Positions 1,386 through 52,660 of a stretch of DNA of 64,000 nucleotides are shown here, one piece after another. This DNA is from an uncultured Clostridium sp. Its GTDB lineage: Bacteria; Bacillota; Clostridia; TANB77; CAG-508. The number at the start of each line of letters is the position of its first letter. Positions within the stretch are counted from its first letter, which is position 1. The notes beneath the pieces were generated by a model, which was not told the DNA's origin, searched no databases, and was given only the letters and a program-made list of their open reading frames with translations. The stretch spans positions 29,968 through 93,967 of the forward strand of contig CAMMWP010000002.1 in the NCBI GenBank assembly GCA_946500615.1, given 5' to 3'. A program made the translations under genes and the position numbers.

Positions 1386-2210
1386 ATGAAAGAAAAAATT
1401 ACAGTTTTGATTGCAGATGATAATCAAGAATTTAGTCAAACATTAGCATCATACATAGATGCACAAGAAGATATGGAGGTTATTGCAAAAGCCAAGGATG
1501 GAACAGAAGTAATAGATATAATAGCGAATACAGTCCCAGATATAATATTACTAGATGTTATAATGCCACATTTAGACGGGTTAGGAGTTTTAGAAAATAT
1601 CAATAAAATAAAGATAGCTAAGAAGCCAATTTGCATCATGTTATCAGCAGTTGGACAAGATAAGATAACACAAAGAGCAATAGAATTAGGTGCACAATAT
1701 TATGTAGTAAAACCATTTGATATTGAAGTATTAATCAAAAGAATTAGAGAATTTAAATTTTACAAACCAGTAGCACAAAATACGAATAATAATTTTTTGG
1801 CTAGAGAAGTAAAACCACAATATATTGAGATTTCTTCAGATAATGCTAAGCCAGAAGAAAACTTAGAAGCATTAGTAACAAATATTATACATGAAGTTGG
1901 CGTACCTGCACATATAAAAGGATATCAATATTTAAGAGAAGCGATTATGATGGTTGTAAATGATATTGATGTGATTAATCAAATTACCAAAAGCTTATAT
2001 CCACAAATTGCACGCAAATTTAATACAACACCAAGTCGCGTAGAACGTGCCATTCGTCATGCTATAGAAGTGGCATGGGGACGTGGTCAACAAGAAATTG
2101 TTGAGAATATATTTGGATATACCATTTCAGCTGCTAAAGGAAAGCCTACCAATAGTGAATTTATAGCGATGATAGCTGATAAATTACGCTTAGAATTAAA
2201 ATCAGCATAG
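1386..2210 (+). CDS. spo0A: Sporulation master response regulator Spo0A
   Basis: RBS ggaggg, then [16 protein letters not shown] receiver domain (D-D-K residues). C-terminal Spo0A-specific DNA-binding domain ([18 protein letters not shown]...[15 protein letters not shown]). The last ~50 codons lie in a sequence duplicated at 10772-10920. Confidence 0.92.
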
Positions 2211-2417
2211 GATATGGCTAGAAGTATTGCAAGAGTAAGAATATATAAAATTAGAAAATCTGCTTGCAAGGCTATAAACTATATGAAAATAGTCATAGAT
2301 TAAGTGAAAAATCAGCTCTCAAGGCAATAAATGAAAATTGAATAGGACAATAAACTTCCAAGATTTATTGGTTAATATTTAAAAATGTTAATCAGTAAAA
2401 ATTGGAGGTTTTTTTGT

Positions 2418-3404
2418 ATGGAGAAAATTGATTATGAGGTAGATGACTTTATGAATTATTGTGATTATAAAGGATTATCAAAAAAGAGCATGAGAAGTTA
2501 TGAGCAAACATTAAGGTTATTTATACGATATTTAAAAGATGAGTGTAATATCACAAACACAGGAGATATAAAAGAACAAACGATAAAAGAATATATAAGC
2601 AGTATAAAGGAAAGAGGAAAATACACAGTAGTTGCAAATGACAATTCAAAAAAATTTAATAATCCACAAAACAGACAAGATTTTGGAAAAAAAGTCAGTT
2701 TAGCAACAGTTAATAATTACACAAGAAATTTAAGAGTATATTTCAACTATATGTATGATAATAGGCTTATAAAAGTAAACCCAATGAAAAATATAAAAAC
2801 AATAAAAATACCAAGAAAAGTAGTAGGGTATATGGAAAATAAAGACTTTAATAATTTACTAAAATGCTTTGATTTATCTAAATTTCACGAATATAGGGAT
2901 TATGTAATAACACAATTAATATTTGATACTGGTATGAGATTAGGGGAAACACTTTCAATAAGAGATGAAACAGATATAAATTTCACAGATAGAACAATAT
3001 TTTTACCAGCAGAGAATACAAAAGGAAAAAAGGACAGATATGTATTTTTTTCAATAAAAATGGCAACTGAATTAAAAAGGTGGTTACAGTTTAGAGATAG
3101 ATACAAAGATAGTGAATATTGTTTTTGCACAATAAAAGGCACAAAATTAAAAGGTAGTAATTTTGAAAAGAATTTCACAAAATATGGAGAAAGAATTGGA
3201 AAAAGAGAAATACACCCACATCAATTAAGGAATAATTTTGCTAAAAGATTTTTAATGAGCGGTGGGGATATTTATACATTATCAAAAATATTAGGACATA
3301 GTTCAGTTCAAGTTACAGAACAAGCATACCTTGATTTAGATACCGAAGATTTAAGACAAATGTATCAAAAACATTCCCCACTTATGAATTTAAAAAGGAT
3401 ATAA
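2418..3404 (+). CDS. int: Tyrosine-type site-specific integrase
   Basis: RBS ggagg. C-terminal catalytic residues R..HxxR..Y (HPHQLRNNFAKRF...GHSSVQVTEQAYLD). Immediately adjacent to the att region. Confidence 0.85.
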   Translation: MEKIDYEVDDFMNYCDYKGLSKKSMRSYEQTLRLFIRYLKDECNITNTGDIKEQTIKEYISSIKERGKYTVVANDNSKKFNNPQNRQDFGKKVSLATVNNYTRNLRVYFNYMYDNRLIKVNPMKNIKTIKIPRKVVGYMENKDFNNLLKCFDLSKFHEYRDYVITQLIFDTGMRLGETLSIRDETDINFTDRTIFLPAENTKGKKDRYVFFSIKMATELKRWLQFRDRYKDSEYCFCTIKGTKLKGSNFEKNFTKYGERIGKREIHPHQLRNNFAKRFLMSGGDIYTLSKILGHSSVQVTEQAYLDLDTEDLRQMYQKHSPLMNLKRI

Positions 3405-3409
3405 AAAGA

Positions 3410-4123
3410 TTATTCTTTTGGGTATTCTTCTTTTGCCTTTTTGATTTTTTTATTTATCTCATCAAAATATACTTTGTCAACTATTGCATTTGTTGTTACA
3501 ATTTTGTTAGACAACAATGTCCTTTCCATAGTAACTTTTTCTTTTGTAATATATATTTTATCATTTTCTTTAACTTTTGAGGTAAAATATTCATGCAATA
3601 TCCTCAAAATTGGGAATTGCTTTTCATACCAACTTTCTTCCTCTTTATAATATTTTTCAAATGCTTTGCTTTCTGCTTTTTCTAACTCTTTTTGTGTATA
3701 ATTTTTTTTCTCTATAATAACTCGTGGATTTCCATCAAATGGACGATTTTTTTTTCTACTTTCTTGTTCTATTAAAAAATTTATGGTATTTAATAGGCTT
3801 TTTTTATTACTATATTTTAATTCATTTAATGCTTCTATTGCCTCATCAGTTAAACCTGTTAAATTATATATAGTAATATAATCTGGATTTGTACTAGCAA
3901 TATCTGTTTTACCCAATAAATAATTTTCTGAAACATTAAATTCTTTTGCTATCTTTTCTAAATCTTCTAGTGGGATAGGACGTTTTCCACTTTCATACAT
4001 GGCTACCGCTGACCTACTTATATTTAATATGTTATTGGCTAAGCCATCTTGTGTAATACCATTTTTTTCTCGTACCTTTTGAATTCTCTTACCTACTATA
4101 ACATAATTAATTTCTTGTGACAT
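3410..4123 (-). CDS. XRE-family HTH repressor (cI-like), divergent from the replication genes
   Basis: N-terminal HTH_3 (ITQDGLANNILNISRSAVAMYESGKRP). Divergent promoter region with a palindromic operator downstream. Confidence 0.7.
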   Translation of the reverse strand: MSQEINYVIVGKRIQKVREKNGITQDGLANNILNISRSAVAMYESGKRPIPLEDLEKIAKEFNVSENYLLGKTDIASTNPDYITIYNLTGLTDEAIEALNELKYSNKKSLLNTINFLIEQESRKKNRPFDGNPRVIIEKKNYTQKELEKAESKAFEKYYKEEESWYEKQFPILRILHEYFTSKVKENDKIYITKEKVTMERTLLSNKIVTTNAIVDKVYFDEINKKIKKAKEEYPKE

Positions 4124-4150
4124 TTTTTAAATTTTCCTCCTTTTGACACT

Positions 4151-4177
4151 TTTGTGACAAGTATTTTATTTGTCACG
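4151..4177. promoter_or_regulatory. Palindromic operator TTGTGACAA-N9-TTGTCACGA in the divergent promoter region of the island
   Basis: Perfect inverted half-sites tgtgaca/tgtcaca lie between the repressor and the rightward genes. Confidence 0.45.
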
Positions 4178-4385
4178 ATTTTATGATATTATAATCCAAA
4201 TAATCAAAAAAATCAATAAAAACATAATTAAGGGGGTGATTAATATTACAGCAGAAGAAATAAGAAAGGCTAAAAACGAATATTTTAGAACTTGGAGAAA
4301 AAACAACAGAGATAAAGTAAAAAAAGCCCAAGAAAGATACTGGGAGAAAGTAGCAAAAGAAAAACAAAAAAACTCACAAATGTAA
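4170..4385 (+). CDS. Small basic protein (possible Cro/excisionase-like; start uncertain)
   Basis: Lys/Arg-rich 50-70 aa ORF immediately rightward of the operator. Confidence 0.3.
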   Translation: MSRFYDIIIQIIKKINKNIIKGVINITAEEIRKAKNEYFRTWRKNNRDKVKKAQERYWEKVAKEKQKNSQM

Positions 4386-4471
4386 ATATCATTAGGCTAT
4401 GTCAGAAAATCAAACTGATATAAGCCTATTGTTAAGGATATAAAATAAAATAGAAAAGGAGAAATAAAAAA

Positions 4472-4810
4472 ATGAAATATATTGAGTTAAATAATGACAA
4501 AAGTCCAAAATATGGATTTCAAACAACATATAAAACTATGGAAGAATTAGAAAATGCAGGACTACTGCTAAACACAAAAGTTGTACTTGTCGATTTTGAC
4601 AATGACAATATAAATGAAGAAAAAATTATTGATTACATTAAAAAGGAATACCCAACATTAACAGTAAAAACAACAAAAGGTACACATTTTTATTATGCTA
4701 AACCTGATAATGTAAAAATCGGTTGTTATACTGATACGATTACAGTTGGAGGATTTCAAGTTGACTATAAAACAGGAACAAAAGCTTATGCTGTTGTAAA
4801 ACTTAATTGA
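4472..4810 (+). CDS. Primase-polymerase (prim-pol) N-terminal domain protein
   Basis: VLVDFDNDN acidic DxD motif and a YYAKP region typical of bifunctional primase/polymerase. Ends at a TGA that is in frame with the downstream helicase ORF. Confidence 0.5.
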   Translation: MKYIELNNDKSPKYGFQTTYKTMEELENAGLLLNTKVVLVDFDNDNINEEKIIDYIKKEYPTLTVKTTKGTHFYYAKPDNVKIGCYTDTITVGGFQVDYKTGTKAYAVVKLN

Positions 4811-4834
4811 ATAGAAAGGGAAACAAATCAACCG

Positions 4835-6310
4835 TTGTCATTTGATAACTTACCAGAATTACCGCCTATACTATATCCATTAAAAGTATCAAAAGAAAAT
4901 TTAAGTGGAATGGCAGATGGTGACGGAAGAAATGACAAAATGTTTAATCATTTATGTTGGGTGCAACGAATTTATCCTGACATCGACCTAGAAGATATGG
5001 CACAAATAATAAATGAAAAATTATTTGTAGAAAGACTAGAAACAAAAGAGTTAGAAAGTATTATAAAAAGTGTAAAAAGCTATTATGATCCAAACGAATA
5101 TACAGGAGATTTAACAGATATGATAGCATTTGCACAATGGATTATTCCTAAACTAGATATAAAAATTTATAATGGTCAATTATATTTCAAAGATGATAAA
5201 ACATATATTACGGATAATCGTTTATTATTACGAAAAGTAACACATTATTCAAAACTTAAAAGAGTTCAAGATAACGAACTTATACATCAATTACTAAAAT
5301 TTTGGGAGGAAATTGATATTACAACTATGAATTTACCAGTGTATATAAGAAATGGAAGTTTAATTGATGGTGAATATAATTCAAATGATATGCAAATATT
5401 CAGTCCATTTTATTTGGACGTGGAATATAATGAAAATGCTTATGATGAACACGTTGATAAATTTCTAAATGATATTACGTGTAATCGTATAGAATTACGT
5501 CAGACATTAGAAGAAATTTTAGGTCACATATTATTGACCAGTAAATTTCCAGCTCATGTATTCTTCTTATCAGGTGGTGGGAACAATGGCAAAAGCACAT
5601 TCCTAGAAATGATAAATAATTTTGTAGGAAAGGCAGGACAAAATTTAAGTTTAGACGCATTTAATGACGACACCAGTATTGCGGCACTAAATAGTAAATT
5701 ATGTAATTGTGCTGACGAAACTGACGACATAAAAATTGATAAATGCAAACGTTTTAAAAGTTTAGCGAGTGGAAACACAATAACAGTACGACCGATATAT
5801 CAACAACCAGTCAAAATTAGAAATGTTGCAACTCTCATACTATCTGCAAATAAAATGCCAATTTTTAAAGATAAGACAGAAGGTTTTTTCAGACGTCTTA
5901 TGATAATTCCGTTTGATTTTGTAATTACAGAAAAAAACGAAAATTTAGACGAATTATTAAGCACTGATAATGCAAAAAGCTACATATTGAATTTGGCATT
6001 AAACGGTGTGCAACGAATAAAAACAAATGGGTATAAAATGACTAAAAATCAATATGTTGACGCTAAAACTGAGGAATACATAACAGATAATGACCCAATA
6101 GCGGCATTCTTAAAAAATTATCCAAATATTGATGGGGAATTAACTAGTGCTGTATATTATCAGTATGAAACATTTTGCACCACATCAGAAATTGACAGTA
6201 ATTCAATGTCATTATCGCAATTTTCCAGCAAAATGCGTGAATACGGATACAAATCTACACCGACAAAAATTAATAAACAATCGGTCCGTGTTTACAAAAA
6301 AATGCGATAA
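4835..6310 (+). CDS. D5/P4-type primase C-terminal helicase (SF3 NTPase)
   Basis: Walker A FFLSGGGNNGKSTF and Walker B ILSANK motifs. Same reading frame as 4472..4810, separated by a single TGA. The called start is TTG. Confidence 0.65.
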   Translation: MSFDNLPELPPILYPLKVSKENLSGMADGDGRNDKMFNHLCWVQRIYPDIDLEDMAQIINEKLFVERLETKELESIIKSVKSYYDPNEYTGDLTDMIAFAQWIIPKLDIKIYNGQLYFKDDKTYITDNRLLLRKVTHYSKLKRVQDNELIHQLLKFWEEIDITTMNLPVYIRNGSLIDGEYNSNDMQIFSPFYLDVEYNENAYDEHVDKFLNDITCNRIELRQTLEEILGHILLTSKFPAHVFFLSGGGNNGKSTFLEMINNFVGKAGQNLSLDAFNDDTSIAALNSKLCNCADETDDIKIDKCKRFKSLASGNTITVRPIYQQPVKIRNVATLILSANKMPIFKDKTEGFFRRLMIIPFDFVITEKNENLDELLSTDNAKSYILNLALNGVQRIKTNGYKMTKNQYVDAKTEEYITDNDPIAAFLKNYPNIDGELTSAVYYQYETFCTTSEIDSNSMSLSQFSSKMREYGYKSTPTKINKQSVRVYKKMR

Positions 6311-6870
6311 ACTGATACACTAACTGATACACTATGCCATACGTGAAACTGCTGATATTACTGAACTATACACAATTACACTATTACACATATATTTTTT
6401 TAAAATATTTTAATTTTTATTTGTATATTATGAAATATGAAAAAAATTAATAATAAAAAATATATAAAATAATGGTGTAATTGTGTAATAGTGTAACGTA
6501 CTACGCTGACAAGTTGTTGGCGATAGAACAAGTGTATAGGAAAGTGTAATCACTTCAAATTTGTGTATAAAAATGATTTTGAATTAAGTTTTATGTAATA
6601 AAAAAATGGTAACCGAAAAGCACATATTATAGTAATGGCAATATGTTGGTGTGGTTACAAATTTAAAGTTGAATATTTAAACATGGTAACCTAGTCATAT
6701 TTTAAATTTAGGTTTATTTTTTGTGAATTTATAATAAAGTTGGATACCGAAAATGCGAAACATCAGTTATATCAATTTGTTTATGAGGTAACCAAAAGGA
6801 AACCAACTAAAAAAAGTAACCCAAGATAGTTACCGTAAATCATAAAAAAGATAGCAAAGAGCTATCGTAT
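6311..6870. promoter_or_regulatory. Putative replication origin of the island: inverted GTGTAAT iteron clusters flanking an AT-rich unwinding region, plus GGTAACC repeats
   Basis: tacacaattacactattacaca at about 6367 and ggtgtaattgtgtaatagtgtaac at about 6473 in inverted orientation. Between them is an 80-bp stretch that is essentially pure A/T. GGTAACC occurs three times in 6600-6830. Located just 3' of the helicase gene. Confidence 0.5.
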
Positions 6871-6877
6871 ATTATAA

Positions 6878-7117
6878 TTAATCGGCTATATCAATATTAT
6901 CAAATAATTTATCATCGAAAAAATCTTTTAATTTCATATTTAATGCTTCACAAATATATTCTATCATATCAAGTCTAATTATTTTTCTTTTGCCTGATAA
7001 AAATTTAGATAAAGTTGAGCGAGAAATACCAGCCAATGTAGAAAGTTTTGATACATTGAGATTATTTTCATTTATTAAATTAGTAATTCTCATTCTAACT
7101 GCTTCTGATAAATCCAC
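6878..7117 (-). CDS. Small XRE-family HTH regulator
   Basis: 79 aa with LSTLAGISRSTLSKFLSGKR helix-turn-helix. Confidence 0.6.
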   Translation of the reverse strand: MDLSEAVRMRITNLINENNLNVSKLSTLAGISRSTLSKFLSGKRKIIRLDMIEYICEALNMKLKDFFDDKLFDNIDIAD

Positions 7118-7181
7118 TCTAAAATCTCCTTTTATATAGTATTCCTATTAAAGAAAATTTTAACAAAAAACATATTTACAT

Positions 7182-7439
7182 TTGTTGACAAACGCCAACA
7201 TTTTTAGTATTATTTATACAGAAAGGTGCAGTAAAATGGAACAAATAAATAAAGAATTCGATGTGCCATATTACATATTTGAAGAAATAGTTAATTATGT
7301 TGAATTAACAGCACATGGAAAAAATAAAAGTATGAAATGGGAAAATATAAAAATGCTATTAGGATTAGCAAAAGTAAATGATAGATTAACAAGTGAACAA
7401 GTTGAATTTCTTATAAATAAATATAACAGGGAATTATAG
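7182..7439 (+). CDS. Hypothetical protein
   Basis: ORF with a likely start at MEQINKEF (7237). Located downstream of a ttgaca promoter-like box. Confidence 0.35.
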   Translation: MLTNANIFSIIYTERCSKMEQINKEFDVPYYIFEEIVNYVELTAHGKNKSMKWENIKMLLGLAKVNDRLTSEQVEFLINKYNREL

Positions 7440-7472
7440 TTCAATAATTTACAAAAGAAGGGGGATGAATAA

Positions 7473-7559
7473 ATGGACGGAAAAGGAAAATGGTGGAAAG
7501 TGATTTTAGGTATAGGACTTTTAGTTGGTGGATGTATCTTAGTTGCTATAACAGCATAA
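7473..7559 (+). CDS. 28-aa hydrophobic peptide MDGKGKWWKVILGIGLLVGGCILVAITA
   Basis: Strong RBS aagggggatgaataaATG. Single TM segment. Not in the ORF track because it is under 60 aa. Confidence 0.35.
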   Translation: MDGKGKWWKVILGIGLLVGGCILVAITA

Positions 7560-7598
7560 ACATTTTAAAAATTATAGAGAGGAAAGAGGAATATTTAT

Positions 7599-8060
7599 AT
7601 GAATATGAAATTAAAAAATCAAACAGGAATAAGTTTAATGAAAGTAATAATTATCGTAGCAGTAATAATTATAGGAATAGTAATCATTAGTGCGATTACA
7701 AGTAAACCGGGTTACGAGTTAAGTGTAGAAAAAAGCGAACCAGTTGCATATACAAATTTAAGATATTCTATTGCACAGGCAGCTGCAAGTAGTGGTGGTG
7801 CTAGTACATTAAAAAGCGAATATATTGATACACTTGGAAAATTAGTAAAAAGTGCAGATAGTAATAATCAATGGTTTTCAAGTAATAGTGGTGTGTTTTA
7901 TGGTGGAACAGCAGATACTTCTGATTATCAATATACTTGGATTTCAAACGGAACTTATTGTGCAACATTTTGTATAAAACAAGAGGGCAATACATATTAT
8001 TTATGTGATTTTAAATTTTCAACTGATACTGTAAAAGGTTATACACTTTTTGTTGAGTAA
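7599..8060 (+). CDS. Hypothetical secreted or membrane-anchored protein with a pilin-like N-terminus
   Basis: N-terminus MKLKNQTGISLMKVIIIVAVIIIGIVI: short basic leader, a Gly, then a roughly 20-residue hydrophobic stretch. No E at +5, so it is not a canonical prepilin. Confidence 0.4.
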   Translation: MNMKLKNQTGISLMKVIIIVAVIIIGIVIISAITSKPGYELSVEKSEPVAYTNLRYSIAQAAASSGGASTLKSEYIDTLGKLVKSADSNNQWFSSNSGVFYGGTADTSDYQYTWISNGTYCATFCIKQEGNTYYLCDFKFSTDTVKGYTLFVE

Positions 8061-8353
8061 TATGGATAATATAACGATAAAATAATAAAAAGTAGAAGAT
8101 ATTATCAATTTATCTTCTATTTTTGTAAATTTATATAGAAAAATAATCATAAAATAAAAATAAATAGCGGTAATTAGTATTATACAGGTGTTTTTAGGGA
8201 TTTTATATTTTAGTAAAGGTAATTTCATAGGTAATATATTAAAAGTGTTTAAAATTAAAATTACGACCACGTTTTTTATAAAAGTTCATAAAAAAGAAAA
8301 ATGTAAATATGTTTTATGAATTTTTTCTGTGTTTAGCAATATCAAACTGTTTT

Positions 8354-8542
8354 TTAATATATGGTCTGCCGACTAACAGGAATAATATTGCGAATATACC
8401 AGTTTTCTGCATTATCACTCATACGAGCCATAATTGTTTTATTCCAGTGTTTTATTTGTTCCTCTGACATTGGAACTTTTGAACAAGAGGATAATTGCAC
8501 AATATTAATAATATCTATATCATCTAAATCTGGTTTGTTCAT
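8354..8542 (-). CDS. Hypothetical protein (62 aa)
   Basis: Good RBS aaaggtggtg upstream on the minus strand. Confidence 0.35.
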   Translation of the reverse strand: MNKPDLDDIDIINIVQLSSCSKVPMSEEQIKHWNKTIMARMSDNAENWYIRNIIPVSRQTIY

Positions 8543-8700
8543 TTTTTATGCACCACCTTTTTCTATTTGATAAATTACATTATAAGATAAAATTAAAAAA
8601 AAATAAACAATGTTCTTACATTTTACAAATAACTACATTAAGAAAATAATAAAAATCTCTTAAAATAAAATGTGAATATAAAGTGAAAGGGGTGGATTTT

Positions 8701-8904
8701 ATGGAACAAGATTTTTATAGTGCAATATTAAAAATACTAGAAAAGGATATAAAAATTAATACAAATGAAAATTTAATAAACACATTATTTGAAAAAAGGT
8801 CAGAAAAATTTCATGTAGCAGTTACTAAAAATGACAAATATAAAGTTCAAAAAGAAAATTTAAAAAAAGCAAATGAAAAAATATATAGAATTACAAATGT
8901 ATAA
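8701..8904 (+). CDS. Hypothetical protein
   Basis: RBS aaaggggtgg, then ATG at 8701 (MEQDFYSAIL...). Confidence 0.35.
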   Translation: MEQDFYSAILKILEKDIKINTNENLINTLFEKRSEKFHVAVTKNDKYKVQKENLKKANEKIYRITNV

Positions 8905-9186
8905 ATATGGTGTTTATGACGGTATAAAATTAATACTTGACAGCATAAACAAATAATAAACTGTGATATTAAAAAGCAAGGGTGCAATATACCTTGTTTT
9001 AATTTTGTTTATTAAATTATGAATGTAATACAATGACAATTTAATTACATTTGATAAAACACACATAAAGCCAGTAATATCAACCGTTAAATACATTTTT
9101 GCTCGAAATATATACAGACAAATGTAATACAATTCATTTAGATTTTACATTAAATGTCTTATAATGAATAAAAAAGAGGTGGTTTT

Positions 9187-9747
9187 ATGAATACAGTTCA
9201 GCCAATAAGGGATAGGGAAAAATTAGAAGATTTAAAAGAGGAATTAAAGAAAAACGGAACAAGAGATTATATGTTATTTTATACAGGTATCAATTCGGGT
9301 ATGAGAATATCAGACATTGTAAAATTAACAAAAGAAGATGTAAGAAATAGTGATAATAGTATGAAACAACATATTACAGTAATTGAAAAGAAAACAGGAA
9401 AACAAAAACGATTTCCACTATGTAACGGTTTATTAGTAGAAATGGAAAAATACACAAAAAATATGAGAGCAGGGGAATATTTATTTAAAAGTAGAAAAGG
9501 AGAAAACAAACCAATAACAACAGTACAAGCATATAGGATAATAAGTGAAGCGGCAAAAAGAATAAGTTTAGAAGAAATAGGAACACATACTATGAGAAAA
9601 ACATTTGGGTATTGGCATTATCAACAATATAAAGATGTTGCAATATTACAAGAAATATTTAACCACTCATCACCATCAGTTACATTAAGATACATTGGAA
9701 TAAATCAAGATAACATTGATAAGTCATATATGAATTTTAGTTTATAA
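9187..9747 (+). CDS. Minimal tyrosine recombinase (186 aa, catalytic domain only)
   Basis: RBS aagaggtgg. Catalytic residues R (SGMRISD), K (KKTGKQKRF), HxxR (HTMRKTF), W/H (YWHY), Y (LRYIG). A degenerate 3' copy is at 11140-11285. Confidence 0.7.
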   Translation: MNTVQPIRDREKLEDLKEELKKNGTRDYMLFYTGINSGMRISDIVKLTKEDVRNSDNSMKQHITVIEKKTGKQKRFPLCNGLLVEMEKYTKNMRAGEYLFKSRKGENKPITTVQAYRIISEAAKRISLEEIGTHTMRKTFGYWHYQQYKDVAILQEIFNHSSPSVTLRYIGINQDNIDKSYMNFSL

Positions 9748-9863
9748 AAAATGTAAAATTTTACAATGTTCGCTTGATTTTTGCAAACAAATGTTGTATA
9801 GTATTAAACATAGGAAATGAGAATAAGCAGATGTGGTTTGCCTCCAATAAGGAGGTGAGGCAT

Positions 9864-9986
9864 ATGGTAGAAATACAAACATTAATTGCAACAATATACA
9901 TATTATATTATTCATTAATTGGCGTAACTATCATAGCTCTTACTTCGATAATAGCACTTGTAATACTACTTTGTAAGAGCAAATAA
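9864..9986 (+). CDS. 41-aa hydrophobic peptide with a C-terminal KSK; candidate type I toxin
   Basis: Promoter-like ttgcaa..tatagtat at 9782-9815. Strong SD aaggaggtg. Peptide is MVEIQTLIATIYILYYSLIGVTIIALTSIIALVILLCKSK. Followed by a rho-independent terminator. Confidence 0.45.
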   Translation: MVEIQTLIATIYILYYSLIGVTIIALTSIIALVILLCKSK

Positions 9987-9994
9987 ACCAAAAA

Positions 9995-10036
9995 AACAGA
10001 CACATCTGTAAACTCGCCAAAGTTTGATGTGTCTAA
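9995..10036 (+). terminator. Rho-independent terminator hairpin (agacacatc ... gatgtgtct)
   Basis: 9-bp stem plus a downstream A/T run. Confidence 0.5.
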
Positions 10037-10771
10037 AACATTATTCCGAGGTTGACCACGTTTGTGGTTTCTCCATTTCCTATAATTATTATACACAGAT
10101 TAAATGGATTTGTCAAATATAATTTTTTAATAAAATTGCATAAAAAGTGATATTTGCAACAGAAAAAAATAAAAATAAGTGTATAATAATAATTAAGTAT
10201 TAAAATGTATTAATTAAATAAGAGAGGAGGAATGACGAAGGAACTTAGATTCAAGTTAAATAAGACCTTTCAATAAATAAAAATTTATAGAAAGGAGGAA
10301 TTTTAAGGAAGTATCCTTTAATATGCTTAATAAGAATATTAATATTAATAATAATTTTTTTATTTGGTGAAGATACAATTCCAATCATAAAAGATTGGTT
10401 GCTTGGAGAATTGATTAGTTATTTCATAAAATCATTTTATACTAGTAAAATTAAAACTGAGCCAAAAAATGAAATAATTGTAAATATAAATCAAAATAAT
10501 TATTATACAGTAATAAAAAAACAATAATCCAAATTCCTAAACTTGTCTAAAACCTTTAAATTATTCCTATTTGTGTTAATAAAAGTAAGAATAAGTGATT
10601 AAGTTCATTTATTCTTTTTAGTTTCTATTGAGATTTCACGAATAATCTCTTAAAATCATACCAATAAACATTTTTGGATAAAACCAATAAATATTTATTG
10701 GAATGTGAAAATTTATTGCCCTCGTAACCTTTGACAAAATCTAAAAAGTTTGGTTTATAAAAATCCGCCAT

Positions 10772-10920
10772 GCCATAGAAGTAGCATGGGGAAGAGGACA
10801 AACGGATGTTGTAGAAAGTATATTTGGATACACCGTATCAGCAGCAAAAGGTAAGCCAACTAATAGTGAATTTATAGCAATGATAGCTGATAAATTAAGG
10901 CTAGAATTAAAATCAGCATA
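10772..10920 (+). pseudogene. Displaced second copy of the spo0A 3' end (last 50 codons, about 85% nt identity, mostly synonymous differences); att-associated
   Basis: Encodes [50 protein letters not shown]. spo0A positions 2058-2210 encode [50 protein letters not shown]. Confidence 0.8.
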
Positions 10921-11700
10921 ATGAATAATCTAGTATGTTTGAAGGTATTGATATAATAAGAATACGGAAATTTATAAAATATGATTTTATAGCTATAAAC
11001 TATATGAAAATAGTCATAAAATAAGTGAAAAATCAGAGGTTAAGGCTATAAATGAAATATTCATAGGACAATAAACTTCTAAAATTTATTGGTTAATATT
11101 AAAAAACGTTAATCAGTAAGTTTTGGAATTTTTTTTCATATGTGTAAAACATGTGGATATTGGCATTATCAACAATATAAAGATGTTGAAGAAATAGTTA
11201 ATCACTCATCACCATCAGTTACATTAAGATACATTGGAATAAATCAGGATAACATAGATAAATCATATATGAATTTTAGTTTATAAAAATGTAAAATTTT
11301 ACAATGTTCGCTTGATTTTTGCAAACAAATGTTATATAGTATTAAACATAGGAAATGAGAATAAGCGGAGTGTGTTGCCACCTTTTACTCTTTGATGTGT
11401 ACATATTTATTCCACAGCTTTTAGCTTGTGAGATTGACTGGCTGGTGGTGGTGCTATGGTAGAAACAGCTTATTAGTAATCATCAAACTACTTTTCCTTG
11501 GATTAGTAGGTGTAACTATCATAAATTTTGCCTTAGTATTCATCATCTTGTATTTACTACATAGGCAATAAAAATAACCATTCTGCTTTGACGGGTCGAA
11601 TGGTTATTTTATTCTTCTCGGCAACCACAAAGTGGTTTCTTCATTTCTTATAATTATTATACACAGATTAAATGGATTTGTCAAATAATAATTTTCCCAT
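10921..11700. mobile_element. Remnant of a second, related element E2: a left end homologous to 2211-2400, fused to the 3' fragment of the small recombinase and a disrupted toxin-peptide region
   Basis: 10975-11110 matches 2265-2400. 11140-11285 encodes ...WHYQQYKDVEEIVNHSSPSVTLRYIGINQDNIDKSYMNFSL*, matching the 3' end of 9187..9747. 11630-11690 matches 10060-10120. Confidence 0.6.
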
Positions 11701-11820
11701 CTGTACCACCTAATATTATTATGTACAAAAATAAATAATAGTATAAAAATAATGCAAATAGAGTTATCTGTCATGTTCGCTAGACAATAAAGTAAAAATA
11801 TAATGTACTAATTAACATAG

Positions 11821-11888
11821 GAAAGAGAAGAACAAGAAGCAGTTGAAAATATCTTTGGATAAACAACAAGCGTGGTACTGCAAAGCGT
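11821..11888 (+). pseudogene. Third, highly degenerate relic of the spo0A 3' end (likely the original chromosomal copy)
   Basis: acaagaagcagttgaaaatatctttggata aligns 25/30 with spo0A acaagaaattgttgagaatatatttggata. The frame is broken by TAA. Confidence 0.5.
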
Positions 11889-11983
11889 AAAAATAAAAAA
11901 ATAATCATATAGTATGAATTTGTATAAAATGAAAAATTATGGAAATACTGAAGATAAATACATAAGAAACTAAGGAGGTACAG

Positions 11984-12319
11984 ATGGAAGATATTGATTT
12001 AAAAAATATGATAATTTTAAAAGATTTACCATCAAATATAGTAAAAGAAGCGTATGTGGTATTCAAATCTAATAAAATGATAAAAAAATTTCAGAAAATT
12101 AATAAAAATAAAGAAAAAAAACAAATTGACAGAGAATGTGAAGAAGGCCAATATGCAATAAAAGAAGCAGAAATGTTAGTATCAGAATATATAGAAAAAG
12201 TAGAAAAATCTGAAAAAGAAGTCATATTAAATTCCAAAGTGAACAAAAAATTAAAAAGATATGCATATATAACAAGTATGATTATCGTTTTACAATTTAT
12301 ATTATTAATCATTAAATAG
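11984..12319 (+). CDS. Hypothetical protein with a C-terminal TM segment
   Basis: RBS aaggaggt. 111 aa, K/E-rich with a hydrophobic tail. Confidence 0.5.
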   Translation: MEDIDLKNMIILKDLPSNIVKEAYVVFKSNKMIKKFQKINKNKEKKQIDRECEEGQYAIKEAEMLVSEYIEKVEKSEKEVILNSKVNKKLKRYAYITSMIIVLQFILLIIK

Positions 12320-12381
12320 GCATAAAATACCTTTTCCAAACATATAGTTTAACAAGAAACGAAGGAAGAGGTGTTTTTTTA

Positions 12382-13275
12382 ATGGAAAGAGTAATGACAG
12401 TAGAAGAAAGAATCAAACGAGCAGAAGAAATATATGCAAGGCGAAAAAGAAATGAAGGACTGACAGTTATTAAAGATGAAGATATCAAAAAAGAAAAATC
12501 TGAAAAAAAAGATATAAAATTATTAAAAAAAATGTTAATTCAATTAATGGTTTGTGTATGTATATATTTAGTCATTTATATCATACAAAATAACCAATAC
12601 ATATTTTCAGAAGATTTTATTCACAAAGTAAATGAAATCATATCATATGATATTGACTTAAAAAAAATTTATGAAGACACAAAAAACTATATAATGAGTA
12701 TCTTCAATAAAGAAAAAGAAGAAGAAAACAAAGAAGAAGAGCAAAATGATCAAACAAATACGACGCAAAGCAATGAAGCAAATAATGGAATTGGAGGTGC
12801 AGTAGAAGAAACAAATAAGGAACCAGAGCAAGAAAAAGAAAATGAGGTTTTATCACAAGAAGAACAAGACATTTTAAATGTAAAAAATACAGCTAACTTT
12901 ATAAGACCGGTGGAGGGAACAATTAGTTCTGTATATGGATACAGGGAAACAGCAACAGGTACAGTGCCCAAAAATCATACAGGAACAGATATAGCAGCAA
13001 CAATGGGGACAAAAATAAAATCAGCAACAGATGGGCAGGTAGTTTTAGTTTCAGAAGAAGGAGATTATGGAAAACATATAAAAATACAAATTGGAGAAGT
13101 GAGTATTATTTATGCACACTGTAATAGCTTATATGTAAAAGAGGGGGAACAAGTAACACAAGGACAAGAAATAGCAGAAGTAGGATCTACAGGAAATTCG
13201 ACAGGTCCACATTTACATTTTGAAATTAGAATATCAGAAAGAACAGTTGACCCACAAAAGATACTAGAATTATAA
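12382..13275 (+). CDS. M23-family peptidase-domain membrane protein (SpoIVFA-like)
   Basis: N-terminal TM segment, C-terminal LytM/M23 motifs HTGTDIAA and GPHLHFEI. Lies immediately upstream of the SpoIVFB homolog. Confidence 0.6.
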   Translation: MERVMTVEERIKRAEEIYARRKRNEGLTVIKDEDIKKEKSEKKDIKLLKKMLIQLMVCVCIYLVIYIIQNNQYIFSEDFIHKVNEIISYDIDLKKIYEDTKNYIMSIFNKEKEEENKEEEQNDQTNTTQSNEANNGIGGAVEETNKEPEQEKENEVLSQEEQDILNVKNTANFIRPVEGTISSVYGYRETATGTVPKNHTGTDIAATMGTKIKSATDGQVVLVSEEGDYGKHIKIQIGEVSIIYAHCNSLYVKEGEQVTQGQEIAEVGSTGNSTGPHLHFEIRISERTVDPQKILEL

Positions 13276-19303: not shown

Positions 19304-19401
19304 ATAAAATGAAACAAGAAACTATTTGTAAAATTATATACAAATAGTTTATGTTTTTTATATATTAGGAAAGTCATGCTGACTTTCTAATATATAAAAA
19401 C

Positions 19402-19510
19402 ACATTGCACACAATTTTACATGCGTAAAATTAGCGCAGAACAAATTTACGGAAAGCCTAAGCAAAATTTAAAGTGTAGTTGTATTTAATGGCTTTCCGA
19501 TTTGTTCTAT
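19402..19510. repeat. Mosaic intergenic repeat family R1, copy a (modules: palindrome aattttacNNNNgtaaaatt; hairpin gaacaaatttacggaaagcc/ggctttccgatttgttc)
   Basis: The same modules recur at 23259, 25284, 28895 and 34484. Confidence 0.6.
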
Positions 19511-34483: not shown

Positions 34484-34745
34484 AATAGGAAAAATCGAGT
34501 TTTTCCTATTCAAGAACATCGCTTCGCTCTAACAATTGCACACAAATTTTACTTACGTAAAATTTGGCGCCGAACAATGACGCGGGCTTTAAAATGTTAT
34601 AAACAGAGAAAATGTTCAAAAAAGCCCGCTATTGTTCTACAATAGGAAAGTTCCCCTTTCCTATTGTATAAAAAACGCTTCGCATAACGGATGTACACAA
34701 TTTTACATACGTAAAATTGGCACAGAACAAATTTACGCAACGCTT
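34484..34745. repeat. Mosaic repeat R1 copy e (largest: two aattttacNNNNgtaaaatt modules, two ataggaaa palindromes, one GC hairpin)
   Basis: See the R1 family. Directly abuts the prophage junction. Confidence 0.65.
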
Positions 34746-51979: not shown

Positions 51980-52056
51980 TGCGGAATGGAGAAGAGGTCA
52001 ATCTCGCTAGTCTCATAAGCTAGAGATCGTAAGTTCGAATCTTACTTCTGCAACCA
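51980..52056 (+). tRNA. tRNA-Met (anticodon CAT; could alternatively be tRNA-Ile2 lysidine type), phage-encoded
   Basis: Manual fold: acceptor tgcggaa/ttctgca, D-stem gaga/tctc, anticodon stem ctagt/gctag with loop ctCATaa, T-stem gtaag/cttac with loop TTCGAAT, discriminator A, CCA encoded. Confidence 0.7.
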
Positions 52057-52156
52057 AACCCTATAAAGTATAATTAAAAGAAAAGGGTATTTAAGAGAAG
52101 AGTAGATGTTAATATTAATGTCTGCTCTTTTTAATTTAATTAGGAGGAGTAGAAAA

Positions 52157-52420
52157 ATGGGAAGTAAAGAATTTATTGATGATTGCAAAGAAAAAGTAAG
52201 AAGTTATGCAATGGGACATTTAGATAAAAGCGATGAAACACCAACATTTGAAGTTTTTGTGGTGTGGTATAGTAAAACATTGCAAAATCATAAAGCGTTA
52301 TTAAGTACATCATTGCCAGATGGTATGTATTATGAATTAACTTACAATGGAGATAAAAAAGAACTATATTTTGATGCATATAAAAAATTTGAAAATAAAT
52401 GTATAAAATATGAAGATTAG
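52157..52420 (+). CDS. Hypothetical phage protein
   Basis: RBS aggaggagtagaaaaATG. Confidence 0.4.
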   Translation: MGSKEFIDDCKEKVRSYAMGHLDKSDETPTFEVFVVWYSKTLQNHKALLSTSLPDGMYYELTYNGDKKELYFDAYKKFENKCIKYED

Positions 52421-52585
52421 TTTTCAACAATTACTAACTATATTCTATATAGTTAAAGAATTGTGAAATAAATTACCTATCTACCAAGAAGTAGAAAAGG
52501 TTTCTGGAAATGTACTATAAATGCAAGTGAACATTGCTGTGATTACTTGTAAATACTAGTTTATTATAGTGCAATTTCTGTATAT

Positions 52586-52660
52586 TTGGGAATAGTTAAA
52601 TTGGTATAACAACAGGCTTTGACCTTGTCATTCTTAGTTCGAGTCTAAGTTCCCAAGCCA
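52586..52660 (+). tRNA. tRNA-Gln (anticodon TTG), phage-encoded
   Basis: Manual fold: acceptor ttgggaa/ttcccaa, D-stem gtta/taac, anticodon stem acagg/cttgt with loop ctTTGac, T-stem cttag/ctaag with loop TTCGAGT, CCA encoded. Confidence 0.7.

Follow-up and report, generated by a model that had tools for sequence, protein, structure and literature searches.

The described mobile elements closest to the locus reported here are phage-inducible chromosomal islands (PICIs) of the staphylococcal pathogenicity island (SaPI) type, especially SaPI5 with its fused PriRep protein, and the phage-inducible chromosomal minimalist islands, or PICMIs, of Vibrionaceae. Marine virion-encapsidated integrative mobile elements (VEIMEs) are similar to the latter. 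PICMIs are small satellites with a recognisable core of three parts only (integrase, regulator, primase), with defence-type cargo and no packaging or capsid genes, and their helper dependence and concatemer packaging have been demonstrated (PMC10803314). The island considered here lies in a 64-kb stretch of low-GC (about 27%) Clostridia DNA, hereafter the window, from an uncultured Clostridium sp. (contig CAMMWP010000002.1, assembly GCA_946500615.1). With SaPI-type PICIs it shares an integrase placed at one end, a repressor that lacks an SOS-cleavage domain and diverges from a rightward operon, a fused primase/superfamily 3 (SF3) helicase-initiator with the replication origin (ori) directly 3' of it, opposed iterons around an AT-rich centre, and variable cargo. 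It differs from them in lacking terS and the cpm, ppi and pti operon, in being shorter (8.7 kb), in having its attB inside a protein-coding gene and its replicase interrupted, and in adding an HTH_26 switch, a 67-aa protein, a small recombinase and a candidate type I toxin-antitoxin locus. The small size, the three-part core, the defence-type cargo and the lack of packaging or capsid genes are common to it and PICMIs, and both integrate at the end of a regulator gene (fis for PICMIs, spo0A here), but it carries an XRE repressor where PICMIs carry an AlpA activator, and primase type, host phylum and attachment site are different. On balance, we favour the reading that this locus is a PICI-like (phage-satellite-type) island which integrates site-specifically, with the 3' end of spo0A as attB.

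The original prediction for this DNA had proposed a satellite architecture from its gene order, and every part of that order is present: integrase, XRE repressor, small basic open reading frame (ORF), primase, helicase, origin, small genes, recombinase and peptide. Its borders (2211-10771) have to be moved on both sides, on the left into spo0A, with the core at 2112-2119, and on the right to 10823-10830; it had missed the attachment site in spo0A, as well as the tandem remnant and the split in the primase-helicase gene described below. The features that define the attachment site are these.

1386-2210, plus strand: spo0A, 274 aa (Pfam Response_reg and Spo0A_C on an identical gene call), with codons ~245-274 (from 2120) coming from the island
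2112-2119, plus strand: attL core TTTGGATA, which encodes Spo0A F243-G244-Y245, the probable crossover region; the same octamer stands at the middle and right junctions
2120-2417, plus strand: left arm of the island (P'), made up of the replacement spo0A 3' end and the integrase upstream region, 80-83% identical to 10831-11136
2418-3404, plus strand: tyrosine integrase, 328 aa (PF00589, 3.9e-33, with a SAM-like N-terminal domain; phrog_1, 3.5e-51)
10769-10920, plus strand: second spo0A 3' fragment (...KSA*) at the junction between island 1 and the remnant, with the core at 10823-10830

The octamer TTTGGATA, which contains TTGGATA, occurs at 2112, 10823 and 11854 (11854-11861), and copies of the spo0A 3' end accompany the first two of these cores. 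The terminal ~150 nt of spo0A and the ~200 nt 5' of the integrase (2052-2415) are repeated at 10763-11136 with 80-83% identity, the second copy encoding a near-synonymous Spo0A C-terminus, and island 1 (2112/2120-10830) measures 8,711 bp. An attL/attR duplication could be aligned in 13 other species, which supports the crossover position. Where right arms hold little or no spo0A-like sequence (L018, L019 and L025, L numbers being our labels for compared contigs and loci), the duplication begins at TATAC, ~90 nt before the spo0A stop, and at the rightmost junction of the window the likeness to spo0A ends exactly after TTTGGATA; crossover therefore appears to take place at the IFGY codons, with the element giving codons ~245-274. 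The island sits within the spo0A 3' end at codons 243-245 and gives the gene its last ~30 codons. The spo0A reading frame runs through island DNA to its normal C-terminus, and the gene is kept full-length. The predicted attP of island 1 consists of a right arm ending in ...GTTGTAGAAAGTATATTTGGATA and the left arm TACCATTTCAGCTGCTAAAGG, and the site left after excision is predicted to read ...GTTGAGAATATATTTGGATA followed by CACCGTATCAGCAGCAAAAGG. Mobile or prophage-like DNA in a sporulation gene is also known from skin in sigK, SPbeta in spsM and yin in yabG (PMC5025042, PMC10747680). Those elements split their gene and must excise, whereas the substitute 3' end of this island keeps spo0A intact, so that no developmental excision is needed.

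The site does not always hold the same occupant. L008, from a strain with an identical Spo0A protein, follows the window to 2153 and then continues into a different type of arm; site occupancy therefore turns over within the species. Proteins identical to those of the window turned up in metagenome-assembled contigs, and the closest species-level genome is a chicken-gut metagenome-assembled genome (MAG) with a Spo0A 98% identical. The gene 5' of spo0A belongs to the YigZ/Impact family; 3' of the variable region come a 111-aa gene and then a pair encoding an M23 peptidase and an M50 protease. When the exact Spo0A and the neighbouring YigZ-like (upstream) and M23 (downstream) proteins were used to look for empty sites, all long contigs proved to have the island. 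It is present in the runs ERR4968578, ERR6747215 and ERR6769791 and in the data behind ERZ2641606, ERZ2916515 and ERZ12590415. One candidate for an empty site with a truncated spo0A, L011, was rejected as a possible chimera: its join is exactly 31 nt of shared sequence, presumably the k-mer size of the Logan assembly, and its spo0A part is just 84.6% identical. L010, from a sample that also holds the island, shares the downstream genes and diverges left of window position 11921. Its first 617 nt (L010 1-617) are unrelated DNA with a 109-aa lipoprotein-like gene followed by a terminator, which indicates a further structural variant at the right border.

The integrase belongs to a widespread family. 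A scan that covered one genome per species returned 33 loci with integrases 54-90% identical to that of the window, all in MAGs of gut or animal Clostridia/Bacillota. Upstream sequence sufficient for an assessment was available for 28 loci, and in all 28 spo0A stands ~200 nt 5' of the integrase, complete or partial, the partial cases being a 3' fragment at a tandem junction (L042) and a gene cut by the contig start (L021). The host Spo0A proteins are 44-98% identical to that of the window, and the range of hosts is therefore phylogenetically broad. A further C-terminal piece of Spo0A follows 2.5-8.7 kb downstream in 13 loci that have a full upstream spo0A, and L040, L041 and L046, which lack the upstream sequence, have a spo0A fragment downstream of the integrase. 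In at least 28 species, members of the family use the conserved IFGY codons within spo0A as their attB. The searches made among PMC and bioRxiv papers gave no description of integration at the spo0A site. The family explains the integrases and stray Spo0A_C fragments that follow annotated spo0A genes in these MAGs, and, satellite status aside, it defines a hotspot of mobile DNA and defence cargo tied to the gene that decides sporulation. The locus is of interest mainly because its integrase family is specific for spo0A and because gut Clostridia may harbour minimal satellites.

The cargo of the 33 loci includes a conserved 91-111-aa gene abutting the integrase, small XRE/Cro genes, resolvases and a weak Rep3-like protein, among others; a primase-helicase is found in none of the 33. 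In 20 islands at the spo0A site (L016-L034, L039-L040) the 91-111-aa gene adjoins the integrase stop or overlaps it; this gene has no significant Pfam match and is absent from the window island. Its position recalls iolg, the integrase-overlapping gene needed for PICMI excision.

The replication module of the window island most resembles that of SaPI-type elements, and comprises the following features.

4472-6310, plus strand: Prim-Pol/PriCT/SF3-helicase initiator, a single gene with an in-frame TGA at 4808-4810
4472-4810, plus strand: Prim-Pol part, a 112-aa ORF
4835-6310, plus strand: helicase part of the DUF5906/VapE/P4-type primase C-terminal SF3 kind, a 491-aa ORF in the same frame as the 112-aa ORF
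6310-6550, no strand: replication origin candidate, which starts at the helicase stop and holds a 12-nt direct repeat (two copies), opposed iteron sets and an AT-rich centre of ~80 nt
6310-6334: the 12-nt direct repeat, AACTGATACACT twice
6365-6390 and 6470-6496: opposed sets of 8-bp GTGTAAT-type iterons flanking the ~80-nt AT-rich spacer
6608-6840, no strand: second repeat cluster, GGTAACC three times with variants, between the origin and the HTH_26 gene

The helicase part matches DUF5906 (4e-17), TIGR01613 (4.3e-46, above cutoff) and phrog_864 (1e-95), and in a search with the family profile the best solved relative is PriRep5 of SaPI5 (PDB 7OLA, E 1.2e-33), ahead of poxvirus D5. SaPI origins are described as iterons directly 3' of rep around an AT-rich centre, with at least two opposed iterons on each side (PMC9371898). 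The island's origin candidate matches this published layout and lies where the original prediction had put an iteron origin, directly 3' of the helicase. The window has 13 exact GTGTAAT sites, and five of them fall within these 175 nt; the iteron sequence and layout recur 3' of the homologous gene in L049 (87% identity) and L051 (64%). For GGTAACC, three of the four sites in the window lie in 6608-6840. A second cluster occupies the same place in relatives, built of GGTTACC/GGTAACC in L049 (3470-3660) and of ACTAGAA in L051 (12110-12340). Position is thus conserved while the repeat sequence varies, a pattern suggestive of an array to which an element-specific protein binds; the cluster could be an operator for the helix-turn-helix (HTH) protein, or a packaging or partition site.

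The original prediction had treated prim-pol and a D5 helicase as two genes. They form one reading frame, broken by the TGA at 4808-4810, and among the best 120 homologs single proteins of 606-627 aa predominate. When 12 homologs were aligned with the window protein, the TGA fell on an invariant Gly position (GGA>TGA). Recoding of TGA as Gly was ruled out, TGA ending 5 of 31 long ORFs of this genome. Since the same TGA is found in six contigs and is an ordinary stop, it is therefore a fixed nonsense mutation, and neither an error nor recoding. A TTG eight codons past the TGA is a possible re-initiation start. A split gene, or read-through of the TGA, need not abolish replicase function, since SaPI1 naturally carries pri and rep as two genes (PMC9371898).

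Beyond island 1 lies a second, internally deleted copy, which together with two genes of the island's right end bears on whether the element is still mobile.

9187-9747, plus strand: 186-aa tyrosine recombinase consisting of the catalytic domain only (PF00589, 2.8e-22)
9864-9986, plus strand: hydrophobic peptide of 40 aa and candidate type I toxin, whose ORF has the ribosome-binding site GGAGG; conserved in L031, L044, L045 and L046
10831-11861, plus strand: internally deleted second island copy of ~1 kb
10934-11136: remnant of the integrase-upstream arm
11140-11286: remnant of the recombinase 3' end
11428-11571: diverged peptide ORF of the remnant
11684-11656: antisense promoter of the remnant
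11854-11861: right core

In the remnant, the small recombinase resumes at codon ~133 right after the integrase-upstream arm, the fusion lying at the integrase start codon. The rightmost junction retains the family-typical right-arm sequence CAAGAAGCAGTTGAAAATATCTTTGG, as in L029 and L042, and beyond the core it continues in non-spo0A DNA, reading ENIFG*; this lineage therefore no longer has the native 3' end of spo0A. Remnants that fuse an integrase 5' end to a recombinase 3' end, with differing breakpoints, occur in five species (L022, L041, L043, L045 and L048), and L046 keeps the integrase 5' end and the peptide with no sequence of the 186-aa recombinase. Breakpoints that differ between species point to repeated decay in which the left arm, required by spo0A, and the module at the right end are spared.

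The split replicase, the tandem deleted copy and the lost native end mean that the element may be on its way to fixation, and they make partial domestication a serious rival to a mobile satellite, even if a clearly less probable one in our judgement. On that reading the island is an immobilised relic, once mobile and now fixed because the sole intact 3' end of spo0A and an addictive toxin-antitoxin locus of type I lie on it, the replication gene being inactivated and excision and transfer having ceased. Such a history would leave what is seen here: a TGA in place of an invariant Gly, the same in all six contigs, which come from different samples; a rightmost junction at which loss of the whole array would truncate Spo0A at ENIFG*; and, in six other species, deletion remnants in which precisely the left arm survives along with the right-end recombinase 3' end, the peptide module, or both. 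However, the ORFs for the integrase, the repressor, the helicase part, the HTH genes and the small recombinase are all intact, the different arm beside an identical Spo0A in L008 places turnover at the site in recent time, and if only island 1 were excised, the remnant's arm would keep spo0A intact. The naturally separate pri and rep of SaPI1 likewise speak against taking the interrupted gene as inactive.

The control region of the favoured PICI-like island lies between the integrase and the replicase.

3410-4123, minus strand: XRE-family repressor, 237 aa (HTH_3, 3e-14, an N-terminal HTH; NCBIfam RstR-family, 2.6e-12, below cutoff)
4115-4122: third half-site, TTGTGACA
4152-4178, no strand: palindromic operator candidate TTGTGACAA-N9-TTGTCACGA in the divergent intergenic region, a 12-pair hairpin
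4170-4385, plus strand: small basic protein of 49-71 aa depending on the start codon (phrog_34302, 6e-9, and phrog_14214, 2.5e-8, both families of unknown function)

The repressor gene runs towards that of the integrase and away from the rightward operon, and both it and the palindrome stand where the original prediction had put a divergent XRE gene with its operator. Its C-terminal domain has no assigned function and contains no S24 peptidase domain, and its best PDB match is the Xre-family regulator of ICEBs1, through the HTH part only. Relatives have ORFs of 57-129 aa in the position of the small basic protein.

How far do these parts make the island a satellite? The ORFs were compared with the Pfam, PHROGs, NCBIfam and PADLOC profile libraries, and no island ORF matches a capsid, terminase, portal, tail, lysis, relaxase or type IV secretion system (T4SS) family, which bears out the original prediction that capsid, terminase and conjugation genes are absent. 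Of the five PICI components of SatelliteFinder, three are present. The integrase (PF00589, 3.9e-33) comes with att repeats 8,711 bp apart; the primase-replicase is represented by the PriRep5 profile match (1.2e-33) and conserved opposed iterons, with the caveat of the TGA at 4808-4810; and regulation (alpA, merR or stl), more tentatively, by the 237-aa XRE/HTH_3 repressor, which is counted by its Stl position and not by a match to Stl sequence. For terS there was no Pfam, PHROG or NCBIfam match, and the model of o85, the 67-aa protein, was without a fold match; for capsid morphogenesis or redirection the same three libraries gave none. The staphylococcal PICIs of SatelliteFinder likewise lack a capsid morphogenesis profile (PMC10085698). 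By these profile matches the island is a "Type C" PICI-like element, a satellite-type replicon and putative satellite; the authors of SatelliteFinder regard Type C as ambiguous between satellites, defective PICIs and other mobile elements (PMC10085698). From P4-like satellites it has the C-terminal domain of the P4-family primase (alpha; TIGR01613, 4.3e-46), and psu, delta, sid, epsilon and alpA are without a match in Pfam, PHROG and NCBIfam. The satellite part of the original prediction is thus partly supported: the layout, the PriRep5 match, the origin and the missing virion and conjugation genes speak for it, while terS, capsid-redirection genes and a link to a prophage lend it no support.

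For such a link the original prediction had named, as an example to check, the prophage that begins at 35 kb in the same window. It occupies 35207-64000, runs off the window end, and is a complete-looking, siphovirus-type prophage with genes for a large serine recombinase, an S24/LexA-like repressor, DnaD, DnaB, terS, terL, portal, protease, major capsid and tail tube; tRNA-Met and tRNA-Gln lie at 51980-52660, just upstream of terS/terL. The island shares no protein with it. Given no link in DNA or protein, this prophage is therefore a candidate helper by proximity only.

Several results weigh against an active satellite. Profile and fold searches found no terS, capsid-size or packaging-interference genes and recognised neither AlpA nor Xis, and no pac- or cos-like sequence is common to the island and the prophage (blastn-short and tblastn against the rest of the window gave chance-level matches only). 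No terminal overlaps were found among eight island contigs, and no circular or attP-type contig; every contig of the window lineage has the island at the identical place, and the replicase TGA is found in all six independent metagenome contigs, from different samples. The clade at 58% identity or more was not found in IMG/VR by a close-pattern helicase scan of viral contigs. In an alignment-based scan the IMG/VR relatives are at most 47% identical and lie on 22-48 kb contigs, several of which, with distant relatives, also encode a TerL homolog and look like phages.

The absence of any packaging or hijack gene could also mean that the island is no satellite at all, and is instead a plasmid-like replicon that integrates, or a mobilizable element moved only by conjugative mobilisation, transformation or generalised transduction. 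The same integrase family is elsewhere joined to a weak Rep3-like initiator, resolvases and small XRE/Cro sets, and three-component elements may be other mobile elements according to the SatelliteFinder authors (PMC10085698). We nevertheless regard this as unlikely. A test of the island ORFs for an integrative and conjugative or integrative and mobilizable element (ICE/IME) detected no relaxase, coupling protein, T4SS or oriT-associated family, while the replicon type, the protease-less repressor and the defence-type cargo match known satellites, and the nearest solved homolog of the replicase is a SaPI protein.

The islands most closely related through their primase-helicase bear on the same question and on a possible prophage origin. 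Six were inspected (60-91% identity), and a metagenome scan gave one further 62% relative among the matches listed. They are 8-12 kb islands with a common backbone, which runs from a recombinase through a leftward XRE gene and one to three small rightward ORFs to the primase-helicase, the origin, a leftward 77-79-aa HTH_26 gene (not evident in L051 and L054) and variable cargo. The recombinase varies between the present integrase at spo0A (L049; off-contig in L219), a 161-190-aa tyrosine recombinase and a 505-533-aa serine recombinase. Anti-phage cargo is typical of satellites, and the cargo of these relatives is often of that kind, with genes for GmrSD, PvuRts1I/SRA endonuclease, Mrr, nSTAND3, Panacea-domain proteins and UDG. 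None of the six has virion, relaxase, coupling-protein or T4SS genes.

An integrase, an XRE switch and a primase-helicase also make up the early region of temperate Firmicute phages, and helicase homologs occur in cultured phages (about 31% identity) and on IMG/VR contigs (47%). With relatives of 45-47% on viral contigs and TerL beside more distant ones, the module probably derives from temperate phages. That the island itself is a degraded prophage is nonetheless very unlikely: no virion or lysis genes occur in 2112-11861, att repeats 8.7 kb apart bound the island, and the compact 8-12 kb layout of intact genes recurs with three recombinase types and never with structural-gene fragments.

If the PICI-like reading is right, the integrase would recombine attP, which carries a copy of the spo0A 3' end, with chromosomal spo0A at the IFGY codons, and Spo0A would then be completed by ~30 near-synonymous island-encoded codons. 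The 237-aa XRE repressor, having no self-cleavage domain, would hold the rightward operon off through the palindromic operator until derepressed, perhaps by a protein of an infecting or induced phage, and the island would excise. Replication would go as with SaPI Rep proteins: once the Prim-Pol/SF3 initiator had bound to the opposed iterons directly 3' of the gene that encodes it, it would open the AT-rich centre and copy the circular island. Because a packaging gene is absent, transfer would rely wholly on helper capsids, as in PICMIs or cos-type SaPIs. The second, HTH_26 switch would control a variable cargo slot, and the Fst/par-like type I toxin-antitoxin locus at the right end would stabilise the element. 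Induction, replication competence and helper dependence are thus what we infer for it.

Were these islands satellites, the minimal lifestyle without packaging genes, known from marine vibrios, would extend to uncultured gut Clostridia, and a spo0A-3' integrase, a PriRep-like gene with GTGTAAT iterons and the 67-aa core protein would serve as a marker set. A bolder reading, for which we would claim little credence, is that the elements targeting spo0A are a hitherto undescribed family, made up of helper-dependent satellites and mini-islands of gut Clostridia, that took over the spo0A 3' end, and that excision of a whole array acts as an element-controlled, heritable sporulation-off switch. In lineages without the native end, at least one element arm would then be needed for full-length Spo0A, and whole-array excision would leave Spo0A short of 30 residues.

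The part of the island to the right of the origin holds the second switch and the cargo.

6878-7117, minus strand: second regulator, HTH_26/XRE, 79 aa (HTH_26, 1.6e-12), divergent from the cargo operon
7236-7439, plus strand: o85, a 67-aa three-helix protein (AF2 pLDDT 89.7), a near-core gene of the primase-helicase islands
7599-8060, plus strand: o153, a 153-aa membrane-anchored cargo protein with a pilin-like N-terminus, with 5 homolog clusters only
8354-8542, minus strand: 62-aa ORF, called in L001 and L002, with a homolog in L041 and a 62-aa gene at the same position in L219
8701-8904, plus strand: 67-aa ORF, called in L001 and L002, with a weak homolog in L049

A 77-79-aa HTH_26 gene occupies the same position in L049, L215, L217 and L219. 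Relatives of o85 form 88 protein clusters (57-100% identity); tblastn found it in L051 and L054, and L217 and L219 have an ORF of similar size at the same position. Its confident model has no significant fold match in PDB or BFVD, and it has no family match. For o153 the profile libraries gave no family match, and its model (AF2 pLDDT 57) was too low for a fold search. An 18-nt tandem repeat at 7643-7689 (2.6 copies) encodes the hydrophobic N-terminal segment of o153. The o85-o153 pair is bracketed, beside the HTH_26 gene, by a 20-nt inverted repeat at 7164-7183 and 8299-8318 (19/20 complementary, with the exact 15-mer AAATGTAAATATGTT), which could be an operator pair or a cassette boundary. 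An invertible segment served by the small recombinase was considered and rejected: the other orientation occurs in no contig, and the promoter lies inside the segment.

The second minimal recombinase and the hydrophobic peptide, both named in the original prediction, are confirmed as proteins of 186 aa (3e-22) and 40 aa. The recombinase matches NCBIfam models of the XerA/XerC/XerD-like kind and, at 6e-10, of FimB/E-type invertases, all below cutoff, and is kept at the right end of L049, L219, L041 and L039. It may serve in dimer resolution, or as a directionality factor, an independent integrase or an invertase. In L219, the 91% relative, genes for a 155-aa protein and a 387-aa DUF4238 protein (6422-8231) are present that the window lacks at 9748-9752; they occupy precisely the interval from the stop of the small recombinase to the promoter of the peptide, a second cargo hotspot.

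The peptide locus has, in addition, RNA features of a type I toxin-antitoxin system.

~9988-10081 (feature 9988-10116), minus strand: candidate antisense antitoxin RNA, with promoter TTGACA-17-TATAAT at 10116-10088

The 5' untranslated region (UTR) of the toxin candidate folds into a hairpin that buries the GGAGG site (-19.2 kcal/mol, z -4.46; 0 of 200 shuffles as stable). Sigma-70 promoters with a 12/12 consensus number just two in 2000-12400, both on the opposite strand, one just downstream of each peptide copy. The predicted antisense RNA of ~94 nt would end in a terminator hairpin and U7, and the 5'-UTR sequence GTGGTTTGCCTCC is echoed at its 5' end as GTGGTTTCTCC. In an alignment across species the antisense-promoter block is the most conserved part, and the 5'-UTR hairpin is also conserved (five species). 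The locus thus appears to have the hallmarks of a type I toxin-antitoxin system, with toxin activity to be presumed. Like the Fst/par- and BsrG/SR4-type loci of Firmicutes, it combines a ~40-aa hydrophobic peptide with a charged C-terminal tail on a mobile element with a predicted convergent antisense RNA, a strong promoter, a shared terminator region and a ribosome-binding site sequestered in a 5' hairpin; with the Fst/par type it also shares a short 5'/3' repeat complementary to the translation initiation region. Unlike those loci it is without a match to the Pfam or Rfam toxin and antitoxin families: the peptide belongs to no known toxin family in Pfam, NCBIfam or PADLOC, and an Rfam scan of 2000-12400 gave nothing above noise.

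Two kinds of repeat lie elsewhere in the window. A perfect 46-nt inverted repeat (411-456 and 532-577) encloses a 75-nt AT-rich spacer between the stop of the upstream gene and the yigZ-like gene. One arm is found again elsewhere in the genome at 93% (L007 5788-5831), and the orientation is identical in all contigs; it could be an element of the miniature inverted-repeat transposable element (MITE) or repetitive extragenic palindromic (REP) kind, or an invertible switch. The intergenic stretches at 19369-19435 and 34531-34639 are repeated in the same genome (L007 3677-3815, 84-96%) and have the appearance of REP-like dispersed repeats.

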